64,000 nt of DNA, taken from Alphaproteobacteria bacterium (GTDB taxonomy: Bacteria > Pseudomonadota > Alphaproteobacteria > UBA828). Position numbers and translations under genes: made by a program. The stretch lies in the NCBI GenBank assembly GCA_965214705.1, contig CBDCCI010000002.1, positions 2,176,001 through 2,240,000 on the forward strand, given 5' to 3'. Below are positions 8,877 through 20,673 of the stretch, piece by piece. The stretch's first letter is position 1; each line of letters begins with the position of its first letter. The notes beneath the pieces were generated by a model that was given only the letters and a program-made list of their open reading frames with translations, ran no database searches and was not told the origin of the DNA.

Positions 8877-9417
8877 GTACGGGTCGAGGGCGTCACGCGG
8901 CCTATGCTCCCGCTGTCGAGAGAAGGAGCGCCGCGAGAATGAGGCACACGCCCGTGAGCCAAGCCGCGAATACGGAATACGTCCACATCATCGAGGCGGC
9001 TCCTCACGGCAGAAGCAGATAATTGCCGTTGCAATCAGCCATTTGCTCCGCCTAAACGAGACGGGTACTCCGAACTCACTCATGGGCTTCTCACCTCACA
9101 ACCGGTGCCGTTCTCGAGAATCGAGACCGCGCGTCAGCATCGCAGTGTCAAAGTCGACGGAGACTGGGATCACTGGATAGAGAGAAAGTAGATATAAATT
9201 GGCAAGAAATGTACACAGAATCAATATACTTTGTTGATCTTGAGCTATATCCGTATTGACATATCTAACAACCTAATACTTTGTAATAACAAGATAAAAC
9301 ATATTAGTATATAAATTACATCTTAGAAACTGGCCCGACCAATGCGAAATTGATATGGAGTGGAAAGACCAATGCTCTCTTTCAAACAAGAGAGCATACC
9401 ATCATGGCATATCAACC

Positions 9418-9422
9418 ATGTT
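9418..9422 (+). repeat. Left copy of the 5-bp direct repeat ATGTT (probable TSD of the IS at 13360-15903)
   Basis: ATGTT abuts the 3' end of intron A1 here and recurs at 20483-20487 abutting the 3' end of intron A2. Confidence 0.75.
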
Positions 9423-9498
9423 ATCGCGGTAGGGAACCGGGTTGCCCCGGTCCCCCCGCACAGATCCGGACGGGCGCTGTTCGCATCCGGCTCCTCCC

Positions 9499-12400
9499 TC
9501 AGGTCCTGACGACAAGCCGCTGGTTCGGCCACGGATGACGGATGCTGGCCTTGGGCCAGTGGGCAGCAGTGAGGGGATTGATATCCTCCCACGCGGTGCG
9601 GTCCCGTTGGGACCTTCGCCGCAGGGCACGCATGAGCAGCCGTTTGCATTGGTGCACGAACCGCACCAGATAGCGGCCGCTCCCGGGTACGCCGTAGTAG
9701 TTGAGCCAGCCGTCGATGACCCTTCCCAGCCACTTCGCTGTCTCGTGCCGGTTGTCGTGCCAGCGCTTGCGCAGCCTTTCCGCGATCCCCCGCAGAGTGC
9801 GGTTGACCCGTTTCCGGGATGGCCTGCGGCCGACCCTGAACCGTCCCTTCCTCGACTGGTCGCAGAAGTGCGTCATGCCAAGGAAGTCGAACGTCTCCGG
9901 CTTGCCCTGCCCCCGTGTCCGGCGGTTCGCTTTCGCGTAGCGGCCGAATTCGATGAGCCGGGTCTTGCCCGGATGCAGTTCCAGTCCGTACTGGGCCAGC
10001 CTCTCGCCGAGGTCCCGGAGGAAACGCTTCGCGTCGCCCTCGTGCTGGAAGCCGCACACAAAATCATCGGCGTATCGCACGATGATTGTGTCGCCTCCTG
10101 CCGTCCGTTTGCGCCATGTGTTGTGGAACCAGTCGTCGAGCACGTAATGCAGGTAAACGTTGGCGAGGCAGGGTGAGATTATCCCACCCTGCGGAACGCC
10201 CCTGCCGGTGTCCGTCCAGTCGGTCCCTTCCATGACGCCGGCGTTCAGCCACTTGACGATCAGCCGCATGACCCGCGTGTCTCCGATGCGCCTTTCGAGC
10301 ATCCCGACCAGGTGGTCCCGCCCGAGATTGTCGAAGAACCCGCGGATGTCGGCGTCAACGACCCAGTTGACCTTCCGCCGTTCCATTCCAACCGCCACGG
10401 CGTCGAGCGCGTTATGCGTCCCCCGCCCCGGCCGGAAGCCGTAGCTGAAGCCGAGGAACTCCGTCTCGTAGATCGGCACCAGAATCGTATCCGTCACCGC
10501 CCGCTGGAGTATCTTGTCCTCCAGCGAGGCGATGCCGAGCGGTCGTTGTCCCCCGTCCTCTTTGGGTATGTAGACCCGCCGCGACGGCGGCGCCCGATAC
10601 GCCCCCCTGTGCACACGCCCGTGCAGGTCGACCAAGCGATCTTCCAGCCCGTCGGCGTATGCCTCCCACGTGACGCCGTCCACCCCCGCTGCCGCGTCCT
10701 TTCTCAGCGAATGGTACGCGTCGCGCAGGCAGTCAACCGTCACATGGTGGAGGAGCGCCACGAGACACTCATCCGGGTTCCTCTTTGCAGCCTGTCGTAT
10801 CCGGTCGGCCGCCTGTGACTCGCTTCCCCGCTTCTGCGCGCGGCGCGAGCTTTGGCCTTTCGGATTGCCCTTGGGTCCGCCCCTTCGCTCCCCCGGCTCC
10901 GCCGGCCCCGAGGGGCCGTTGTTCGCCGGCTTCATTGCTGTCGGGTCGGAGGAGGCGCCCCGCGAGGCTAGCCTCCGTCCGCCGCTCAAACGGCCCGTAC
11001 GGTTTTCCCGTAAGCCGCTTTCACAAAGGTGTCTCAACGAAGGTTCAAGGACGGAACCAGTGAGATCAGGCGAACAAGCCCGTATTCGTCGATCAGCTTG
11101 CGCTCCGGCAACTGTTTCCAGCCAGCGTTGCGCCAGCGCTTGCGACGATGCGACCAGAGCCGCCGCACGATCCAGCCGTCAAGCTGGTGGAAGAGCCCGC
11201 GGACGTGGGCCTTGCAATAGTATTGGCCCCATCCCCGAATGATCGGGTTGATCTCGTCAATCAGCTCCTGCGTGCTGACAGGAGCCTTGCGCCGGGTACG
11301 CTGGCGAATCTGGTCCTTGAAGTGCCGGATGGATTTCTCACGCGGAACCGCGTAGCGCGCTCCCCCGCGAACCCCGCTCTTGATCTTGGAGGACGACAGC
11401 CGGAGAGGCCGCTCGCCCTGCTTGATCTTGTAGCCGAGGAACTCAAACCCGTGCCTGACATGGACAATGCGGGTCTTCCCGGCGTTGAGGGACACACCCA
11501 GCTTTGCCAGAATCCGCCTGGCCGTCTCCAGTGCTGCGCGGGCTTCCCCGCGTGTGCGGCACGTGATCAGCCAATCATCGGCGTATCGCGTTAGTCGATA
11601 GCCGCGACGACGCATTTCCCAATCGAACGGGGTCAGCAAGATATTGCTGAGCAGCGGTGAAACGATGCCGCCCTGCGGAGTGCCCTGTTCGGTCGGCAGC
11701 CTCTTACCGTCGGCCACCACCCCGGCCGTGAGCATCTGCCTGAGCAGACCTAATACCCGGCCATCCGAGACTCGCTGGTTGACGAGTTCGAGGAGCTTTT
11801 CGTGGTCCACGGACCCGAAAAAGTCTTTCAAATCCGCATCGAGAACCCACTCGTTGCCCTCGTCCAGTTCCCTCCATATCTTGCGTAACGCTCCATGGGC
11901 AGACCTTCCTTGCCGGTACCCGTAGTTGGCATCGTCGAACACCGGCTCGAAGATCGGTTCCAGCCGGTTCAGCAGCGCCTGCTGGCACACCCGGTCGTAG
12001 ATTGTCGGGATGCCGAGCGGGCGGAACTTCCCCGGCTGGCCCGCCTTGGGGATCAGGCATTGGAGAACCGGCTGCGGGTGATACTCACCGTCCCGCAACT
12101 CCCGGTGCAGGCGATCGAGATTTGCATCCAGCGATGCCTCGAACGCCGCTAAATCCTCTCCGTCCACGCCACCGGCACCCCGGTTGCGCTTCACCTTTTC
12201 CCAGGCCACCTCAAGGTTCTTCCGCTTGTACACCTTGTCCACCAGTGAGTGGACCTTCCTGTCACCCGCCGGGTTGATCCAGTCGATGAGTCTCCTCGGG
12301 CCATGATGTCCGGGTCTTTCGCTCAAGGAACTTGTCCGCGTCATGGTCCTTACTCACTCATCGCTGTCTCTCGCCGACCACCTCTGCCAACCGACTTCCC

Positions 12401-13001
12401 CGGCCCACACGGCCGCCGCTCGCGCGGTCACCCGGCTTTCGCCGGGCTTCAGGTACTATTCGGTTGTCCGATTGCTCGCCGCGCATCCTTTCCCATTTCG
12501 CCTTTCGGCTTATAGGGTCCGTTATCCCGGTGCCACCCGGGAACGCGGCGAGCCCTCCTGGGGTCACGTCCAGATCTTCCGTACCGTGCCGCTCGCAAAC
12601 ACCTTGGTGCGACGGGTGGGTAAGAACGCCTTCGCCGCCATAGTGCCGGCTCGACCTTGCCCCGTCTTTGGCCGACCGATTCATCATGGGGTGGCCCCCT
12701 CGATTACGGCCCGGTACTTCTCCGCAAGCCCTTCAGATTCCACCTCGCGGTGGACACCCTGCCTTCCGGTTGTCTTTCGACAGTGGACCAACTTAGCTCC
12801 TCCCTTGGCTGTCTCCGCCGTTTCCGGCTTCGTGCCCGTTTAGAGTTTCGCTTATCGGCTCACTCCGGCCAGTGAGGAATTACCCCCACTTTTGGATATG
12901 GCGCCCCTTACCCGAGCGCCAGTGGGACTTGAACCCACCTGATCTGGGCGCTGCCCAGCACACACTATGGGCGAATCTGATTTCTTCGAACCGTACATCA
13001 T
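9499..13001 (-). CDS. Group II intron A reverse transcriptase/maturase, join(13001..12964,10939..9499), 492 aa after intron B splicing
   Basis: ALLHHVT, AAAGVDG, RPLGIASLEDK, PQGGIISPCLANVYLHY, RYADDF, FDFLGMTH. No C-terminal HNH endonuclease domain. Frame is restored when 10940-12963 is removed. Confidence 0.88.
10940..12963 (-). mobile_element. Group II intron B (2024 bp) nested inside intron A copy 1
   Basis: 5' GTGTG at 12963. Domain V GAAAGCGGCTTACGGGAAAACCGTACGGGCCGTTTG and 3' end CCGACCCGAC at 10940. Removing it rejoins CCCATAGT|AGCAATGAAG exactly as in copy 2. Confidence 0.93.
11034..12344 (-). CDS. Group II intron B reverse transcriptase/maturase (no endonuclease domain)
   Basis: HSLVDKVY, RGAGGVDG, RPLGIPTIYDR, GTPQGGIVSPLLSNI, RYADDW, FEFLGY, maturase X motif INPIIRGWGQYY. 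Confidence 0.93.
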   Translation of the reverse strand: MTRTSSLSERPGHHGPRRLIDWINPAGDRKVHSLVDKVYKRKNLEVAWEKVKRNRGAGGVDGEDLAAFEASLDANLDRLHRELRDGEYHPQPVLQCLIPKAGQPGKFRPLGIPTIYDRVCQQALLNRLEPIFEPVFDDANYGYRQGRSAHGALRKIWRELDEGNEWVLDADLKDFFGSVDHEKLLELVNQRVSDGRVLGLLRQMLTAGVVADGKRLPTEQGTPQGGIVSPLLSNILLTPFDWEMRRRGYRLTRYADDWLITCRTRGEARAALETARRILAKLGVSLNAGKTRIVHVRHGFEFLGYKIKQGERPLRLSSSKIKSGVRGGARYAVPREKSIRHFKDQIRQRTRRKAPVSTQELIDEINPIIRGWGQYYCKAHVRGLFHQLDGWIVRRLWSHRRKRWRNAGWKQLPERKLIDEYGLVRLISLVPSLNLR

Positions 13002-13359
13002 TGGGTTGCGGTATAGCTCCTTTCCTTAGCGGCCCCGCACGACCGCGGGGCAGTTCGAAGACCTCCCAGGTCCCGGTGGACTGCTTCGGCACGTGCCATG
13101 GTTCTTAGACCCCGCAGAGCCCCTGCTCGCCTCACCAAAACGGCTCACAGGGTGTTGCCTTCGGCTAATCTGACAGCCTCGGCACCCCGGTTGAATCAGG
13201 TTTCGTGGCTCAATAGCCCGGCCCGTGCCTGCCGCTTCCCAACGCTTCGCCTGCCGCCTCGCGACGACCGGCGCATGGGTCGCGGAGAAAGTGGTCGGTT
13301 CACCTCTCTTTCTGCCGGGACTTCCACCCGGCGACATTCCACCAGTTTGCCTGGCGCAC

Positions 13360-15749
13360 CAGACTTCCTGACCTCTGCTGATTTGGGGTGATGCGGTTTG
13401 CGTGGATTCCGGGGCTGCGGCGACCTCGTAGACCATGCGCAGTTCGGTCCCGGGGAAGACGGTTTCGGTGGCGTTGAGCTCGCTCAGGAGGGCATCGATC
13501 TGGCGGTCGCAGGCGTCATTTGCGAGGCCGAGAATATGGACCCGGAGAACGCCGTTGGCGGGGTCCGGCAGGATGTCGGCATCGGCGGCCAAGAGAGCCT
13601 GAAGCAGTTTCCGGGGATGAGGCTTCTTGCCTTGTCCCTGCATGACGGGGAGCATCATGCGGGTTTCGGCGCGGTAGGCGATCATGCGGATGACGTCGAG
13701 GAGGAGACGGTCGCGTGAGGGCAGGGCATCGAGCTGTCGGTCTTCGTCGAGGTCGCCGGCCCGACAGTGCTTCGGCACGTTCCTGCGGCTGGCCTTGGCG
13801 ATCTCGAGGGCGCCCTCGAGGTCCCTGACCTCGCTCCTGAGCTGCGCCGTCGGCCTCTTTTTCCTGGCCGCGCCGGCGATCCGGTTGCGCAGGCGGGCGA
13901 GCCGGCGTTCGGCGCTGCGGATTGCCTTGTCGTAGGCCCGCCGGAGCGGGTTGACGACCATGGTGTCGGGAGCGAGCGGCTCGAGTTGGTGGGTCGGCAG
14001 GGCGTCGAGGTTGAACTCGTCGCGCATGTACTTGAAGAAGTTTTCCTGCGACCAGCGCGAGACCATGGCGCCTGCGGCCTCGCCCATCGGTTTGTGCGGA
14101 TCGGTGACGATGAAGGGGATCTGGCGGCCGTTGTCCAGCAGGCGGCGGATCTGGCGCACCCTGAAGCCGTTCGGCAACGTCACCGGCTTTTCGGCCAGCC
14201 GCAAGGCGGCGGTGCCGCTCGTCGCCGGTCCGTGAATAGGAACGGTCGTCGCGCTGAAGTCCTCGACCGGCCAATCCTCGCCGCTGAAGTTCTTGTGCCA
14301 GGTCAGGCAAGCGATGCCGCGCCTCGCCAGCCGGCGGAACAGCTCCGGGCTCCAGCCCTCGCGGTCGAAGACCAGGGTGAGCGCGGGGTGGCCGGGCGCC
14401 TGTGCGGTCAGGTCCGGCGCCTGAGCATCGACGATCCCGAGCTCCTGCAGCGCCGCCACCACGTCGGCTTCGATGGCGGCGACCATCTTCGGATCCAGCG
14501 TCTTGTGCAGACAGAGCAGGGGTTTGCCGCCCAGGGCATTGATCCAGTAGCTGGCGCTGGCCGGCAGGCACAGCTTCTGGCGCGAGACGAAGTGTTTCGG
14601 CAGGCGTCCCTTGCGGCCGGCGTAGACCTTGACGTGCCCGTCGACGGCCAGCGTCGCCCAGAGCTCCGGCTCGTCGGCCTGCCAGCGCCTGGCAAGGGCG
14701 AGCTGCCAGGCCCGCACGCCGGCCTCGTCGTTGGCGATCAGCGCGATCTTGCGCCGCAGCGTCTTGACCTCGGGGCAGCGGTCGAGGCCGAGAATGGCGC
14801 CCCATTCGCCCGGCGGCCGGTAGCGCAGGCTCTCGGGATTGCGCACCCGCGCCAAGCTCATGAAGGCCAGGAAGAGCAGGATCGTGTTCAGGCCGTAATA
14901 GCCCTTCGGCAGCGGTGGCAGGACCTCGGTCGCGGCCAGCAGGCCTTCCTTGAGCAGAGCCGGCAGGGCGGTGAGAACGCCACCTGAGCGCACCCCGCGG
15001 GCGGCGCTGCCGAACTGCGGATCGACCGGCCCCGCCTGCCCGCAGCTGGCCAGCACCCGGCCCGAAACATCGCAGGTCGCGCGCCCCATCGGCGCCTGCC
15101 GGTCGCGCCGGTCGCGTGCGGTGCGATCGGTCTGCGGCCCGGCGTCGATGGGGCCTGGTGAGCGGCTCTGCGCCGGTTCCGTCAGGGGCGGCGCTTCCGG
15201 TCGTACCGTCTCGGACCCGGGGGCGCCGGCACCGTCATCGTCGACGCGCCGCTCAACCGCATCGGGCGGTGGACCCTGCGCCGAACCCCCGGGCTCCTGC
15301 GCCGCCTTGCCGATCAGCCCCTGCCGGCGCCACTTGTTGACCGACGCCACCGACACGCCCAGAACCCGGGCCACCGCAGAGCCGCTCAGGCCCGCTTCCA
15401 GCAACGCTGTCGCCTTCTCGGCCAGTTCCGGTGTGAACACCGACGGCCCGCGACCGCGCCGGGGTTTCAGAAACGCCGCTTCACCCTCGGCCAGGTAGCG
15501 CCGCCGCGCGCGCAGCACGGTCGCGCGCGAGACACCGAACGCGTCGACCAGATCCCGTTGCGCGATGTCGCTGACCACCGCGAGCCGGCCAATCCGCATG
15601 AGCATGGCGGCACGGTCATCGGCGGGGTGGCTGTCGAACGGAACGAGATTGGAGAAGTAGGTGAAGGTGTCGTCGGAGATCAGGACGGCGAAGCAGCTGT
15701 TGCCGATCGGAACCGCTTCTGGGGGGCAAATCGGGAGGGTGATGGGCAT
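13360..15749 (-). CDS. Putative DDE transposase, 796 aa; stop codon TG|A split by intron A1 (the A is at 9422)
   Basis: Two HTH-like segments (GVSRATVLRARR; SAVARVLGVSVASVNKW). Acidic motifs VDGH, FDREG, RWSQENFFKY. ORF ends ...RGQEV inside the IR. Confidence 0.82.
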
Positions 15750-15903
15750 GGCTCAGGCCGCCGAATCTGCGTCACCATAAAATAGCAGATTCCGCCGTGC
15801 CGATCAACGAAAACCTGGCCTGAAACGGGAAGAAAGCGGGGAATTTCAACGAGTTCCCGACGCACCGATCCGCATCGCCAAGGCCATGAGGTCAGGAAGT
15901 CTG
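13360..15903 (-). mobile_element. Insertion sequence (2544 bp), large DDE transposase, family not assigned
   Basis: Perfect 16-bp terminal IRs CAGACTTCCTGACCTC (13360-13375; 15888-15903). Single transposase ORF. ATGTT repeats lie outside the flanking introns. Confidence 0.85.
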
Positions 15904-17602
15904 GTGCGCCAGGCAAACTGGTGGAATGTCGCCGGGTGGAAGTCCCGGCAGAAAGAGAGGTGAACCGACCACTTTCTCCGCGACCCATGCGCCGGTCGTC
16001 GCGAGGCGGCAGGCGAAGCGTTGGGAAGCGGCAGGCACGGGCCGGGCTATTGAGCCACGAAACCTGATTCAACCGGGGTGCCGAGGCTGTCAGATTAGCC
16101 GAAGGCAACACCCTGTGAGCCGTTTTGGTGAGGCGAGCAGGGGCTCTGCGGGGTCTAAGAACCATGGCACGTGCCGAAGCAGTCCACCGGGACCTGGGAG
16201 GTCTTCGAACTGCCCCGCGGTCGTGCGGGGCCGCTAAGGAAAGGAGCTATACCGCAACCCAATGATGTACGGTTCGAAGAAATCAGATTCGCCCATAGTA
16301 GCAATGAAGCCGGCGAACAACGGCCCCTCGGGGCCGGCGGAGCCGGGGGAGCGAAGGGGCGGACCCAAGGGCAATCCGAAAGGCCAAAGCTCGCGCCGCG
16401 CGCAGAAGCGGGGAAGCGAGTCACAGGCGGCCGACCGGATACGACAGGCTGCAAAGAGGAACCCGGATGAGTGTCTCGTGGCGCTCCTCCACCATGTGAC
16501 GGTTGACTGCCTGCGCGACGCGTACCATTCGCTGAGAAAGGACGCGGCAGCGGGGGTGGACGGCGTCACGTGGGAGGCATACGCCGACGGGCTGGAAGAT
16601 CGCTTGGTCGACCTGCACGGGCGTGTGCACAGGGGGGCGTATCGGGCGCCGCCGTCGCGGCGGGTCTACATACCCAAAGAGGACGGGGGACAACGACCGC
16701 TCGGCATCGCCTCGCTGGAGGACAAGATACTCCAGCGGGCGGTGACGGATACGATTCTGGTGCCGATCTACGAGACGGAGTTCCTCGGCTTCAGCTACGG
16801 CTTCCGGCCGGGGCGGGGGACGCATAACGCGCTCGACGCCGTGGCGGTTGGAATGGAACGGCGGAAGGTCAACTGGGTCGTTGACGCCGACATCCGCGGG
16901 TTCTTCGACAATCTCGGGCGGGACCACCTGGTCGGGATGCTCGAAAGGCGCATCGGAGACACGCGGGTCATGCGGCTGATCGTCAAGTGGCTGAACGCCG
17001 GCGTCATGGAAGGGACCGACTGGACGGACACCGGCAGGGGCGTTCCGCAGGGTGGGATAATCTCACCCTGCCTCGCCAACGTTTACCTGCATTACGTGCT
17101 CGACGACTGGTTCCACAACACATGGCGCAAACGGACGGCAGGAGGCGACACAATCATCGTGCGATACGCCGATGATTTTGTGTGCGGCTTCCAGCACGAG
17201 GGCGACGCGAAGCGTTTCCTCCGGGACCTCGGCGAGAGGCTGGCCCAGTACGGACTGGAACTGCATCCGGGCAAGACCCGGCTCATCGAATTCGGCCGCT
17301 ACGCGAAAGCGAACCGCCGGACACGGGGGCAGGGCAAGCCGGAGACGTTCGACTTCCTTGGCATGACGCACTTGAACGAAGCCGCTACGCGGAGTTAGCG
17401 GCGTAGAGTTCATTCATTTCCGAGGCGTCGCGGGTGCCGTTTGTTCTGTGCGTTCGCTTCCCGGTTGCGTCAGTGGCGCTCCGCCCGTCGGGTGGCGGAT
17501 CCCCAGCAGCCTCCCGATCACCAGTGGTTAGCATCGACCCCTGCGACGGACCGTCGCCGGATCGGTCCGGCGGCGCGCCGTCGCGATCCAGGGAGATCGA
17601 TA

Positions 17603-18481
17603 ATGACCGGGACCGCGTGCGACACGAACACCGTCACCCCTCTTCGCCAGCGCATGGAGGAGCAGCTCCGCATCGCCAATCTGGCCGCGAGCACGTCCAA
17701 GGCCTACATCTGCGAGATCAAGAACCTGGCCAGGTACTACGACGCCTCGCCGGACGAGCTCGACGCCGAGCAGGTGCGCCAGTGGTACCTGGGGCGGATC
17801 GACAAGGGGCTCAGTCCGGGCACGACCAACGTCTCCTTCGCCGCGCTGAACTTCCTCTACATCGACACACTCGGCTGGCCTGACCATGTCGCCGGCCTGC
17901 GCTCCCGCAAGAAGCCCGGCAAGCTGCCGCGCTACATGTCGGAGCAGGAGGTCGAGCACCTCATCCTTGCGACACCCGACCTCCGCCACCGTGCTGCCAT
18001 TGTCACCGGCTATGGCGGCGGGCTCCGCATCTCCGAGACCTTGGCCATCAAGGTCGGCGACATCCTGTCGGAGAAGAAGCTGCTGCACATCCCCTCCGGC
18101 AAAGGCGGCACCGAGAGAATGGCACCGTTGCCGGACATCGTCATCCACTACTTGCGCGTCTACTACAGGAACATCTGGCCGCGTCCGACGAGCTGGCTCT
18201 TCTACGGCGTCTCGCTCGACAGGCCCATCGCAACGGAGACCTTGCAGGCCGCCTTCAGGAGGGCGCGCGACATTGCCGAGCTCGACCGCAGCTACACCTT
18301 CCATTGCCTGCGCCATTCGGCGGCGACCCATCTCCTCGAGCGCGGCGGCGATATCGAGGTGATCCGGGACATGCTCGGCCATCGAAGCGCGAACACGACC
18401 CGTCACTACGCCCGCGTCACCGGCAAGATGTTCGAGGGCCTCGACCACCCGATCTCAGGCTTCGCAGCGTTGCGCAACTGA
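17603..18481 (+). CDS. Tyrosine recombinase/integrase
   Basis: Catalytic set GLRISE (R), GKGG (K), HCLRH (HxxR), LGH, TRHY (Y). Confidence 0.92.
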   Translation: MTGTACDTNTVTPLRQRMEEQLRIANLAASTSKAYICEIKNLARYYDASPDELDAEQVRQWYLGRIDKGLSPGTTNVSFAALNFLYIDTLGWPDHVAGLRSRKKPGKLPRYMSEQEVEHLILATPDLRHRAAIVTGYGGGLRISETLAIKVGDILSEKKLLHIPSGKGGTERMAPLPDIVIHYLRVYYRNIWPRPTSWLFYGVSLDRPIATETLQAAFRRARDIAELDRSYTFHCLRHSAATHLLERGGDIEVIRDMLGHRSANTTRHYARVTGKMFEGLDHPISGFAALRN

Positions 18482-18487
18482 CGGCGC

Positions 18488-19729
18488 GTGGAGGCCGAAC
18501 GCGCGGGCGTGGCGGAGATCTTCCGCCGCGCCGGCGCCGCTTTCCGTGAGCGCCACAAAGGGCGCATCGACGCCGCCCGGCTCAAGGTCATGGGCGCCAT
18601 CGAGGCGTGCCGCACCGCCGTGCTCGGCGGCCACATGTACGCCTGCGAGGGCTGCGGGCGCGAGCATCCGCTCTTCAACTCCTGCCGCAACCGCCACTGC
18701 CCCACCTGCCAGGGTCTCGCCGCCAACCTCTGGAGCGAGGAGCGCGCCGGGGACATCCTGCCGGTGCCCTACTTCCATGTGGTCTTCACCCTGCCCAAGG
18801 AGGTTGCCGCCATTGCCTTCTGCAACCGCAGGGTGGTGTTCGACATCCTCTTCCGGGCCGTCGCCGAGACCCTGCGCACCATCGCCGCCGATCCCCGCCA
18901 CGGCGGCATGCGCATCGGCGGCACCGCGGTCCTCCATACCTGGGATCAGAAGCTCCGCTTCCACCCGCACCTGCACGTGGTCGTGCCCAACGCGGGCTTC
19001 GACGTAGACAGTGGCGAGTGGAAGACGGGGAGCACCACCTTCCTCGCCCCCGTCAAGGTCCTCGGCAGCCTGTTCCGCCGCCTCTTCCTCGAGGAGCTCG
19101 CCCGCGCCCACGGCCGGGGGGACCTGGAGTTCCACGGCACCGTCGCCCACCTCGCCAATCCCGGCGAGTTCCACGCCACGCTTGCCGCCGCCCGGGCCAG
19201 GGACTGGGTGGTCTACGCCAAGCGGCCCTTCCGCGGGCCTGAGCAGGTCTTCCGGTACCTCTCGCACTACACGCACAGGATCGCCATCTCCGACAGCCGC
19301 ATCGTCTCCTTCGACGGCGAGACGGTCTCCTTCCGCCACCGAAAGCCCAAGGCGCCGGGGCAGAGAAAGCCGCGCTACGGCATCGCCACCGTGAGCGCCG
19401 ACGAGTTCATCCGCCGCTTCCTGAGGCACGTCCTGCCGGACGGCATGCACCGCATTCGCTACTTCGGCATCCTCGCCAACGGCTGCCGCGCCAGCACGCT
19501 GGAGAGAGCACGCCAGGCTCTCGGCGCCCTCGGCTGCGCCGCCCCCGAGGGAAGCGTGGACGGCGCTCAGGCCGAGCCCGACGAAGAGCCCGAGATCGGC
19601 ACCGCGCCCGTGGCCTGCCCCCACTGCGGCGGCGTCATGCGCCTCGTCCGCGAAATCCGCCGCCGCCATGAGCCCCGCTCGACGCGCGGCCCGCCGGCGC
19701 TGCCGCCGACCCACAGGGGGAAACCGTGA
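18488..19729 (+). CDS. IS91-family transposase (Y2 HUH) with Zn-binding N-terminal domain
   Basis: CEGC...SCRNRHCPTCQ, YFHVVFTLP, HPHLH (HUH), YLSHY (YxxxY), HRIRYFG. Confidence 0.92.
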   Translation: MEAERAGVAEIFRRAGAAFRERHKGRIDAARLKVMGAIEACRTAVLGGHMYACEGCGREHPLFNSCRNRHCPTCQGLAANLWSEERAGDILPVPYFHVVFTLPKEVAAIAFCNRRVVFDILFRAVAETLRTIAADPRHGGMRIGGTAVLHTWDQKLRFHPHLHVVVPNAGFDVDSGEWKTGSTTFLAPVKVLGSLFRRLFLEELARAHGRGDLEFHGTVAHLANPGEFHATLAAARARDWVVYAKRPFRGPEQVFRYLSHYTHRIAISDSRIVSFDGETVSFRHRKPKAPGQRKPRYGIATVSADEFIRRFLRHVLPDGMHRIRYFGILANGCRASTLERARQALGALGCAAPEGSVDGAQAEPDEEPEIGTAPVACPHCGGVMRLVREIRRRHEPRSTRGPPALPPTHRGKP

Positions 19730-20482
19730 GACGGCCGCTCGCTTCGGCCCCGCGCAACGGCGCCAAAGCGCCGACGCACGACCGAACCTGTCTCCGCTTG
19801 AGCCGGGCTGACAGCCCTCGGCTCACACCCCGCTCAGTCCTCGCAGCGTGCGCCCGCATGCCTGCCGAAAGACCGGCGCGAGCGTCGATTTTATGCGCAA
19901 CTCTGCTGCCGGTGGATGCCGCCTGACGCTGACATCAGCGCACTTTCCACATAGCTCAACTTCGCCTCTCGTGGCCCGCGGCTTCGTTCAAAAGGGTTGG
20001 GCAGGCTCTCGAGAGAGAGCCTGCCCAACCCTTAACCTTCTGCGACCAGTCGAGGAAGGGACGGTTCAGGGTCGGCCGCAGGCCATCCCGGAAACGGGTC
20101 AACCGCACTCTGCGGGGGATCGCGGAAAGGCTGCGCAAGCGCTGGCACGACAACCGGCACGAGACAGCGAAGTGGCTGGGAAGGGTCATCGACGGCTGGC
20201 TCAACTACTACGGCGTACCCGGGAGCGGCCGCTATCTGGTGCGGTTCGTGCACCAATGCAAACGGCTGCTCATGCGTGCCCTGCGGCGAAGGTCCCAACG
20301 GGACCGCACCGCGTGGGAGGATATCAATCCCCTCACTGCTGCCCACTGGCCCAAGGCCAGCATCCGTCATCCGTGGCCGAACCAGCGGCTTGTCGTCAGG
20401 ACCTGAGGGAGGAGCCGGATGCGAACAGCGCCCGTCCGGATCTGTGCGGGGGGACCGGGGCAACCCGGTTCCCTACCGCGAT

Positions 20483-20487
20483 ATGTT
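20483..20487 (+). repeat. Right copy of the ATGTT direct repeat
   Basis: Immediately follows the 3' end of intron A2; matches 9418-9422. Confidence 0.75.
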
Positions 20488-20673
20488 ACAGCGTAATCTC
20501 TTGGGAACACCATGAGATTTCATGGGAATTTCATCACCTAATAGTCTTGATTCTAGAGGGAAAACCGGCCCGACCTTCCATGCCACGTGTGCGACTCGGG
20601 GCGCGGTGGAGACGGGGCAACTGGTCGACTACCATTGGGGTCGAACGGGAAAGCCTCGGGGAGGGCCGGTGCC

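Follow-up and report, generated by a model that had tools for sequence, protein, structure and literature searches.

The window is the whole stretch of DNA that was analysed, 64,000 nucleotides corresponding to positions 2176001–2240000 of contig 3 of a 7.9-Mb genome with 67% G+C; positions given without a contig refer to it. The assembly has an estimated contamination of 8.7%, and 20 genomes of the same genus measure 2.8–6.3 Mb. At the locus, a 2544-bp insertion sequence (IS) is bordered on each side by a copy of one and the same group II intron, the two copies lying in inverted orientation and being identical in all shared parts, as found by repeat analysis (Table 1). The transposase of this DDE-type IS matched Pfam family PF21804 (Transposase_29; 354 bits, E = 1.3e-105) and has N-terminal HTH domains in addition. 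For both intron copies the first base is the base that follows the last base of the IS, and both are directed outward. The intron is 1913 nt long without secondary insertions, and each copy is disrupted by its own, different secondary insertion. The one in copy A encodes a tyrosine recombinase and an IS91-type transposase; the one in copy B is itself a group II intron, of 2024 nt, which interrupts the start of the protein gene of copy B and makes this copy a twintron. The pentanucleotide ATGTT at the two outer borders is the target duplication of the IS, displaced from it by the introns. The DNA flanking the intron-IS-intron block (9200–9420 and 20483–20560) is markedly A+T-rich.

Table 1. Features of the intron-IS-intron block, in window positions
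Feature	Position	Strand	Remarks
Insertion sequence, 2544 bp	13360–15903	-	Transposase_29 gene, 16-bp inverted repeats (IRs), 5-bp duplication
IS transposase ORF	15749 down to 13362, then terminal TG	-	Pfam PF21804 Transposase_29
Left terminal IR, plus-strand CAGACTTCCTGACCTC	13360–13375	.	Perfect 16-bp repeat
Targets of copy B in left IR	IBS2 13373–13367; IBS1 13365–13360	-	
Right terminal IR, GAGGTCAGGAAGTCTG	15888–15903	.	Perfect 16-bp repeat
Targets of copy A in right IR	IBS2 15890–15896; linker 15897; IBS1 15898–15903		IBS2 GGTCAGG, linker A, IBS1 AGTCTG
Group II intron copy A	15904–20482	+	RF02005 match 15939–16163; repeat arms
Ends of copy A	Putative DV-DVI 20410–20482		5' start GUGCG; terminates ...CGCGAU
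EBS2 of copy A, CCUGAUU	16063–16069	+	Within 14-nt bulge 16060–16073
EBS1 of copy A, CAGAUU	16091–16096	+	Terminal loop of hairpin 16085–16100
Proposed EBS3 of copy A, bulged U	16156	+	Pairs with +1 A of the 3' exon
Intron-encoded protein	16262–17373 and 20040–20406	+	492 aa in total; RT and maturase; YADD present
Secondary insertion in copy A	17374–20039	+	Borders ambiguous by 3 nt (CTT)
Genes in this insertion	17441–18481; 18488–19729	+	Tyrosine recombinase; IS91-type Y2 transposase
Group II intron copy B	9423–13359	-	RF02005 match 13100–13324; same orientation as the transposase gene
Guide sites of copy B	EBS2 13200–13194; EBS1 13172–13167; EBS3 13107	-	
Unrelated group II intron nested in copy B	10940–12963	-	2024 nt; RT/maturase ORF 11034–12344
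Left target duplication ATGTT	9418–9422	.	+1 A (IBS3) for copy B at 9422, minus strand
Right target duplication ATGTT	20483–20487	.	+1 A (IBS3) for copy A at 20483

Both copies matched RF02005 (group-II-D1D4-6) over the full model (1–225) at 154.2 bits each (cut-off 49, E = 2.4e-44). RF00029 (domains V-VI) scored 34.2 bits at copy A (E = 1.7e-4), below its cut-off of 40, and the match ended exactly at 20482, the same 3' border as that deduced from the repeats; the intron termini are GUGCG and ...GAU. The intron-encoded protein contains the RVT_1 (1.8e-34) and GIIM domains of Pfam and matched TIGR04416 at 339.6 bits (cut-off 300). No endonuclease domain was found in it: GIIM ends 29 residues before the stop codon and no other Pfam family matched. 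Its C-terminus, RTAWEDINPLTAAHWPKAS (...NPLTAAHW...), departs from the class D motif LX3AX3PXLF[V/A]HW, of which only P, A and HW match. A tblastn search of plasmids with the protein returned solely unnamed 'ltrA' homologues at 50–57% identity, which do not indicate an ORF class, and no ORF class was given for the nearest homologues in the literature searched. A blastn search of plasmids with the 5' 396 nt of the intron gave one partial match. None of the six copies in the genome has an uninterrupted intact protein gene, the sole uninterrupted intron copy (contig 3, 2105301–2107209) having a 4-nt deletion; present-day mobility is therefore doubtful. Four of the six hold the nested intron at the identical point; in these, splicing of the nested intron, if it takes place, could still leave the protein gene intact.

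The initial annotation had proposed that two guide sequences of copy A, CAGAUU and CCUGAUU, are complementary to the tip of the IS inverted repeat, and both pairings were borne out. The hairpin at 16085–16100, GGCT-GTCAGATT-AGCC (in RNA, GGCU-GUCAGAUU-AGCC), presents CAGATT in its loop, and the 5' exon of both intron copies ends in GAGGTCAGGA-AGTCTG directly before GTGCGCC. CAGAUU pairs with AGUCUG, the last six nucleotides of the IR (–6 to –1), at 6/6 positions with one G-U pair, and CCUGAUU pairs with GGUCAGG (–14 to –8) at 7/7 positions, with two G-U wobbles that the annotation had not mentioned. One linker base, the A at –7, separates IBS2 from IBS1. The 3' exons of both copies start with A, as the annotation had stated, and ATGTT has the form A-N3-T.

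Such complementarity by itself proves nothing, because the 1913-nt intron contains 35 stretches of at least 6 nt complementary to the 16-nt IR when G-U pairs are allowed, including a second CAGATT at intron position 381. When the loop was shuffled with EBS1 kept in register, the observed pairing was attained in 1076/100000 trials, and for EBS2 in 743/100000 and 1697/100000 trials. The real support for the EBS assignment comes from position and covariation, not from pairing alone.

The EBS positions were taken from the covariance model rather than from a minimum free energy (MFE) fold, which for 16042–16160 alone was uninformative (z = –1.36) and had part of EBS2 paired locally. In the RF02005 alignment, 16091–16096 falls in a terminal hairpin loop, whereas 16063–16069 falls in the 14-nt bulge 16060–16073, between two helices of the domain I d-arm; the comparison with a group II intron model thus places the two stretches in a loop and a bulge. 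Covariation was examined among introns of the same class. In the genome, 27 matches to RF02005 exceed the cut-off and fall into about nine families by sequence; a search of 49 genomes of the order yielded relatives at 67–76% identity from seven genomes besides that of the window, with none above 76% identity. EBS1 was defined by a fixed rule as the last six bases of the loop, and three matches that lacked the anchor pattern were excluded. Among 27 distinct intron/exon combinations, EBS1 paired with its own –6 to –1 sequence at 6/6 positions in 18 and at 5/6 in 7, both failures being head-to-tail tandem copies; mismatched intron/exon controls gave 6/6 pairing in only 6/378. The stem closing the EBS1 loop is retained in 13/16 distinct hairpins, with 12 different stems. 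The alignment together with pairing in 25/27 combinations upholds CAGAUU as EBS1.

EBS2 is supported less strongly. The corresponding bulge of several sister introns pairs with –14 to –8/–9 through differing sequences (AUGGUC/GGCCGU, GACUC/GGGUC, GAUUU/GGAUC and UGCC/GGCA, read from the sequences), but in other sister families only 3–4 bp were found. It is possible, if rather unlikely, that EBS1 is right while EBS2 is shorter or unimportant, with CCUGA (5 Watson-Crick pairs) or fewer contributing, as in RmInt2. The seven pairs include two G-U wobbles, the bulge of sister families offers just 3–6 bp, and the RmInt2 selection data tolerate an EBS2 mismatch, 4 of 5 pairs being sufficient (PMC4615759). 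On the other hand, the 7-bp helix of the studied intron is the longest of the set, and a single-base linker (A at –7) is typical of RmInt1.

The base aligned with EBS3 is bulged, on the 3' strand of the basal d-arm helix, and varies among families. It is complementary to the +1 base in 4/4 families whose 3' ends could be placed (U/A, A/U, C/G and U/A), with U/A in 6/6 copies of the studied intron and C/G in 5/5 copies of the C/G family; one of the latter is a tandem copy, the '3' exon' of which is the G of the next intron. Position and covariation thus favour the view of the initial annotation that IR targeting is RNA-programmed rather than accidental, yet the same is true of every mobile group II intron. 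The covariation check that it had proposed turned out positive among related introns and their exons, whereas across IS relatives it found no intron to compare (0/130 ends, see below).

Four IS copies at 93.7% identity or more were found in the genome: two with both ends occupied by the intron (duplications ATGTT and AAGTT), one with one end occupied (AGGCT) and one without introns (CATTT). The free end of the AGGCT copy adjoins the duplication directly. All intron copies that keep their 5' end (5/5) directly follow the IS terminal base, the sixth copy being 5'-truncated; all 3' ends (6/6) are followed by A and then by unrelated sequence, with nothing past +1 in common. Because the duplications ATGTT, AAGTT and AGGCT lie outside the introns and the AGGCT copy is occupied at one end only, the IS came first and the intron later. 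The pattern fits repeated intron insertion after IS insertion and would not fit movement of a composite block. The one argument for past mobility is the presence of 100%-identical copies at cognate sites.

The opposite relation, in which the IS targeted introns or the intron-IS-intron block moves as a composite and the IR complementarity is incidental, could draw on the two intron copies that form long inverted repeats around the IS and on the identical 5-bp repeats outside them. We consider it highly improbable. IS copies with 2, 1 and 0 introns have the same duplication geometry, the free end of the singly occupied copy included, and the four intron copies at the two doubly occupied ISs carry different secondary insertions. 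Furthermore, 65 relatives of the IS in other genomes transpose in the absence of introns, with 5-bp duplications of the same kind, and the covariation of EBS1 and EBS3 shows that this class reads its flanks by pairing.

Site use was then compared with site availability. The exact 14-nt site occurs 18 times in the genome, a count that includes more diverged IS copies and two ~260-bp elements with both repeats: 5 sites are occupied, 9 are free with A at +1, and 4 are free with another +1 base. Two of the nine free +1 A sites equal occupied sites over ten upstream bases and +1; since such identical free sites exist, sequence alone does not explain site use. GC skew was noisy, and contig 3 was read as having its origin near 0 and its terminus near 1.89 Mb. 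By eye, the intron at the singly occupied IS is lagging-template oriented and the doubly occupied ISs have one intron in each orientation, which is too weak to count. The two ~260-bp elements (contig 3, about 590403–590665 and about 3022297–3022559) carry the terminal 14-mer inverted at both ends and have 5-bp duplications (AGTCT and CAATG); their make-up suggests miniature, non-autonomous elements derived from the IS.

IS relatives were collected at 79 loci in other genomes, from the best 80 of 518 candidate stretches encoding a relative. Both ends were present at 65 of these, which were used; the others either ran off a contig or were interrupted by an insertion. Identical 5-bp flanks were found in 57/65, with the form A-N3-T in 51 of these 57, and an A directly follows 123/130 IS ends. 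The claim of the initial annotation that an A-N3-T target provides the +1 A on both strands is thus borne out in the IS relatives, and U16156 is the proposed partner of this A in the intron. The same 16-mer IR is present at 80/130 ends, a variant GAGGTCCGGACATCTG also exists, and the IR tip is identical even among relatives with transposases of only 55–57% identity. The +1 A thus comes from the target preference of the IS, and therefore the homing site is complete only once the IS inserts.

None of the 130 ends of these 65 relatives is followed by an intron start. A search of metagenome contigs for the exact junction pattern gave one match, by chance, in an unrelated gene, and the IS transposase had no match among 72,556 plasmids. 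Co-variation of EBS and IR across hosts is accordingly not shown, because no intron stands at the 130 ends and the metagenome match is due to chance. Contigs of three public runs (X1, X5 and X7), of which X1 is possibly the source sample, agree fully with the 5' part of the intron and the 16-nt IR; no contig of these three runs spans the IR/intron joint with 31 letters on each side. In runs X1 and X8, IS ends are also joined to other flanks.

The transposase frame has no stop codon within the IS. In an intron-free relative the frame ends ...RGQEV*, the stop codon consisting of the IS-terminal TG and the flanking A. The stop codon of this IS family (window positions 13360–13362; locus L081, 5880–5882) is thus not encoded in the element but is made of the terminal TG and the first target base, which fits the strong A-N3-T preference. 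In the window, the frame continues into copy B (...RGQEVWCARQ), giving an ORF of 907 aa versus 796 aa, and copy B interrupts the stop codon as TG|A. Because copy B and the transposase gene share their orientation, splicing of a read-through transcript would restore TGA, and we infer that unspliced mRNA would yield a transposase with 111 extra residues.

Taken together, the element is very probably an endonuclease-less, IIB-like intron whose EBSs fit the 14-nt tip of the terminal IR of a Transposase_29-family IS. EBS2 (CCUGAUU) would pair with GGUCAGG, EBS1 (CAGAUU) with AGUCUG, and EBS3 (U16156) with the first base outside the IS. Because both ends of the IS carry the same sequence in inverted orientation, every insertion of the IS supplies a pair of complete homing sites, one per strand. 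Reverse splicing of the intron RNA would take place precisely where the terminal IS base meets the duplication, and the RT would copy the intron, most likely with the nascent strand of a replication fork as primer, as demonstrated for RmInt1 and RmInt2; the ends of the IS would remain intact after insertion. We infer this retrohoming pathway, as well as the priming mode and any effect on the transposase, from the arrangement of sequences.

Insertion might instead be coupled to transposition, the intron using the fresh strand-transfer product and thereby parasitising transposition itself. At each 3' end of the IS, the 5 adjoining target bases would then be single-stranded and the opposite 3'-OH, at about +6, would serve as primer; this free 3'-OH would replace the endonuclease cut, and the transposase would make the site, the single-stranded window and the primer at both ends. 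Such coupling would agree with the insertion point at the exact IS/target joint, on the strand ending in the transferred IS end, with the lack of an endonuclease domain in the intron protein, and with the existence in the genome of free sites identical over ten upstream bases, the 14-nt site and +1. Also, the occupied ends are all on the three most similar IS copies. However, with seven elements assumed to have two sites each, occupied ends of 2, 2, 1, 0, 0, 0 and 0 correspond to 210/2002 arrangements (P about 0.1, not significant; hand count), and one IS has a single occupied end. The reasoning is mechanistically coherent but purely geometric, while replication-fork priming is the route demonstrated for endonuclease-less introns (PMC4615759). 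We therefore regard coupling as improbable and retain retrohoming into the finished IS end, guided by the EBSs, as the preferred explanation.

The genome is very rich in group II introns, having others in addition to its RF02005 matches. The 2024-nt nested intron has the 5' end GUGUG and its own RT/maturase, and more than 20 full or partial copies of it occur genome-wide (e.g. contig 3, 92749–94772; contig 1, 2614328–2616351). No Rfam family matched it at E up to 0.01. By coordinates, several copies are nested in, or border on, introns from various RF02005 families, which looks like intron homing into other introns. In a sister intron family, represented in the genome by six 5' ends and 69% identical, two of the sites have ...GTTGAAGAGCGGA as 5' exon and TGCTCGC... 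as 3' exon; this sequence is also present unoccupied at 18660–18690 (minus strand), antisense to the zinc-finger region of the IS91-type gene (18488–19729). An ORF-less intron family of 671 nt (5' GAGCG) shares a 5' exon of about 20 nt, GTAAGAGGGGCAAATCCTGG, with unrelated DNA upstream. On contig 1 its copies are at 421561–422231 (+) with 424485 (–), at 2635805 (+) with 2638726 (–), and at 1859845–1861186; they are arranged as convergent pairs ~2.9 kb apart and once as a head-to-tail tandem, and an HTH protein is encoded in the interior. Here too an intron may be targeting the IR of an IS, in this case a different IS and some 20 nt in from its end. A Pfam search of the element holding the F1-family introns returned only an HTH protein, which gave no identity for that IS.

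The arrangement would be a clean natural case of specialisation among mobile elements, with the intron adapted to the IS. The homing site would be a composite, with 14 bases from the IR tip and one from the target preference of the IS, and the IR tip is a very stable address, identical across diverged IS relatives. With its ends undamaged by the intron, the IS may in principle have stayed mobile and so be able to provide further intron sites. An intron in the transposase stop codon would tie normal termination of the transposase to splicing. The intron would also offer a simple test system, with one target oligonucleotide in either orientation.

The closest known system is an endonuclease-less intron of ORF class D, RmInt2 of Sinorhizobium meliloti GR4, which lies in the IRs of ISRm17 (Martinez-Rodriguez et al., 2014; PMC4615759). 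According to that paper, its natural sites are the left and right ISRm17 IRs, two per IS and on opposite replication strands; it has a U-A EBS3/IBS3 pairing, forms tandem copies and shows a lagging-strand bias, and IR targeting was shown experimentally. Toro et al., 2018 (PMC5894124) repeat the point of RmInt2 targeting the ISRm17 IRs. The studied intron resembles RmInt2 in being endonuclease-less and of IIB type, in having two IR sites per IS, and in the U-A EBS3/IBS3 pair; head-to-tail tandems are formed by RmInt2 itself and here by a sister intron family. In contrast, the RmInt2 protein has 419 aa with an ORF of class D and the motif LX3AX3PXLF[V/A]HW, whereas the protein studied here has 492 aa and departs from that motif. 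The IS family and the IBS sequences differ as well. In its 3' exon, RmInt2 further selects for A+2 and A+7, whereas the 3' exons of the studied intron have nothing past +1 in common. The studied intron stands at the very last IS base with host DNA as its 3' exon, a contrast with the IR position of RmInt2 that is not fully established, and, unlike RmInt2, it splits a stop codon.

RmInt1, which resides in ISRm2011-2, is an intron of the same kind: its home is likewise an IS, it follows the same EBS1/2/3 logic, and one linker base separates its IBS2 from IBS1. Its insertion site, however, is within the transposase gene, so that each IS offers a single site, and its EBS3/IBS3 pair is G-C. Introns homing into other group II introns are familiar from archaeal and bacterial twintrons, a likeness that concerns the nested 2024-nt intron, found at the same host-gene point in many members of the class, and not the IR-targeting finding. 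A group II intron in a stop codon is likewise known, in groEL of Azotobacter vinelandii; there the stop codon belongs to a cellular gene, whereas here it is assembled from the IS end and a target base. No other intron at an IS/target joint was found in the literature searched. The principle of IR targeting is already published, since RmInt2 in ISRm17 has been described (PMC4615759); the studied intron extends the strategy known from RmInt2 to a further lineage of introns and a different family of IS.
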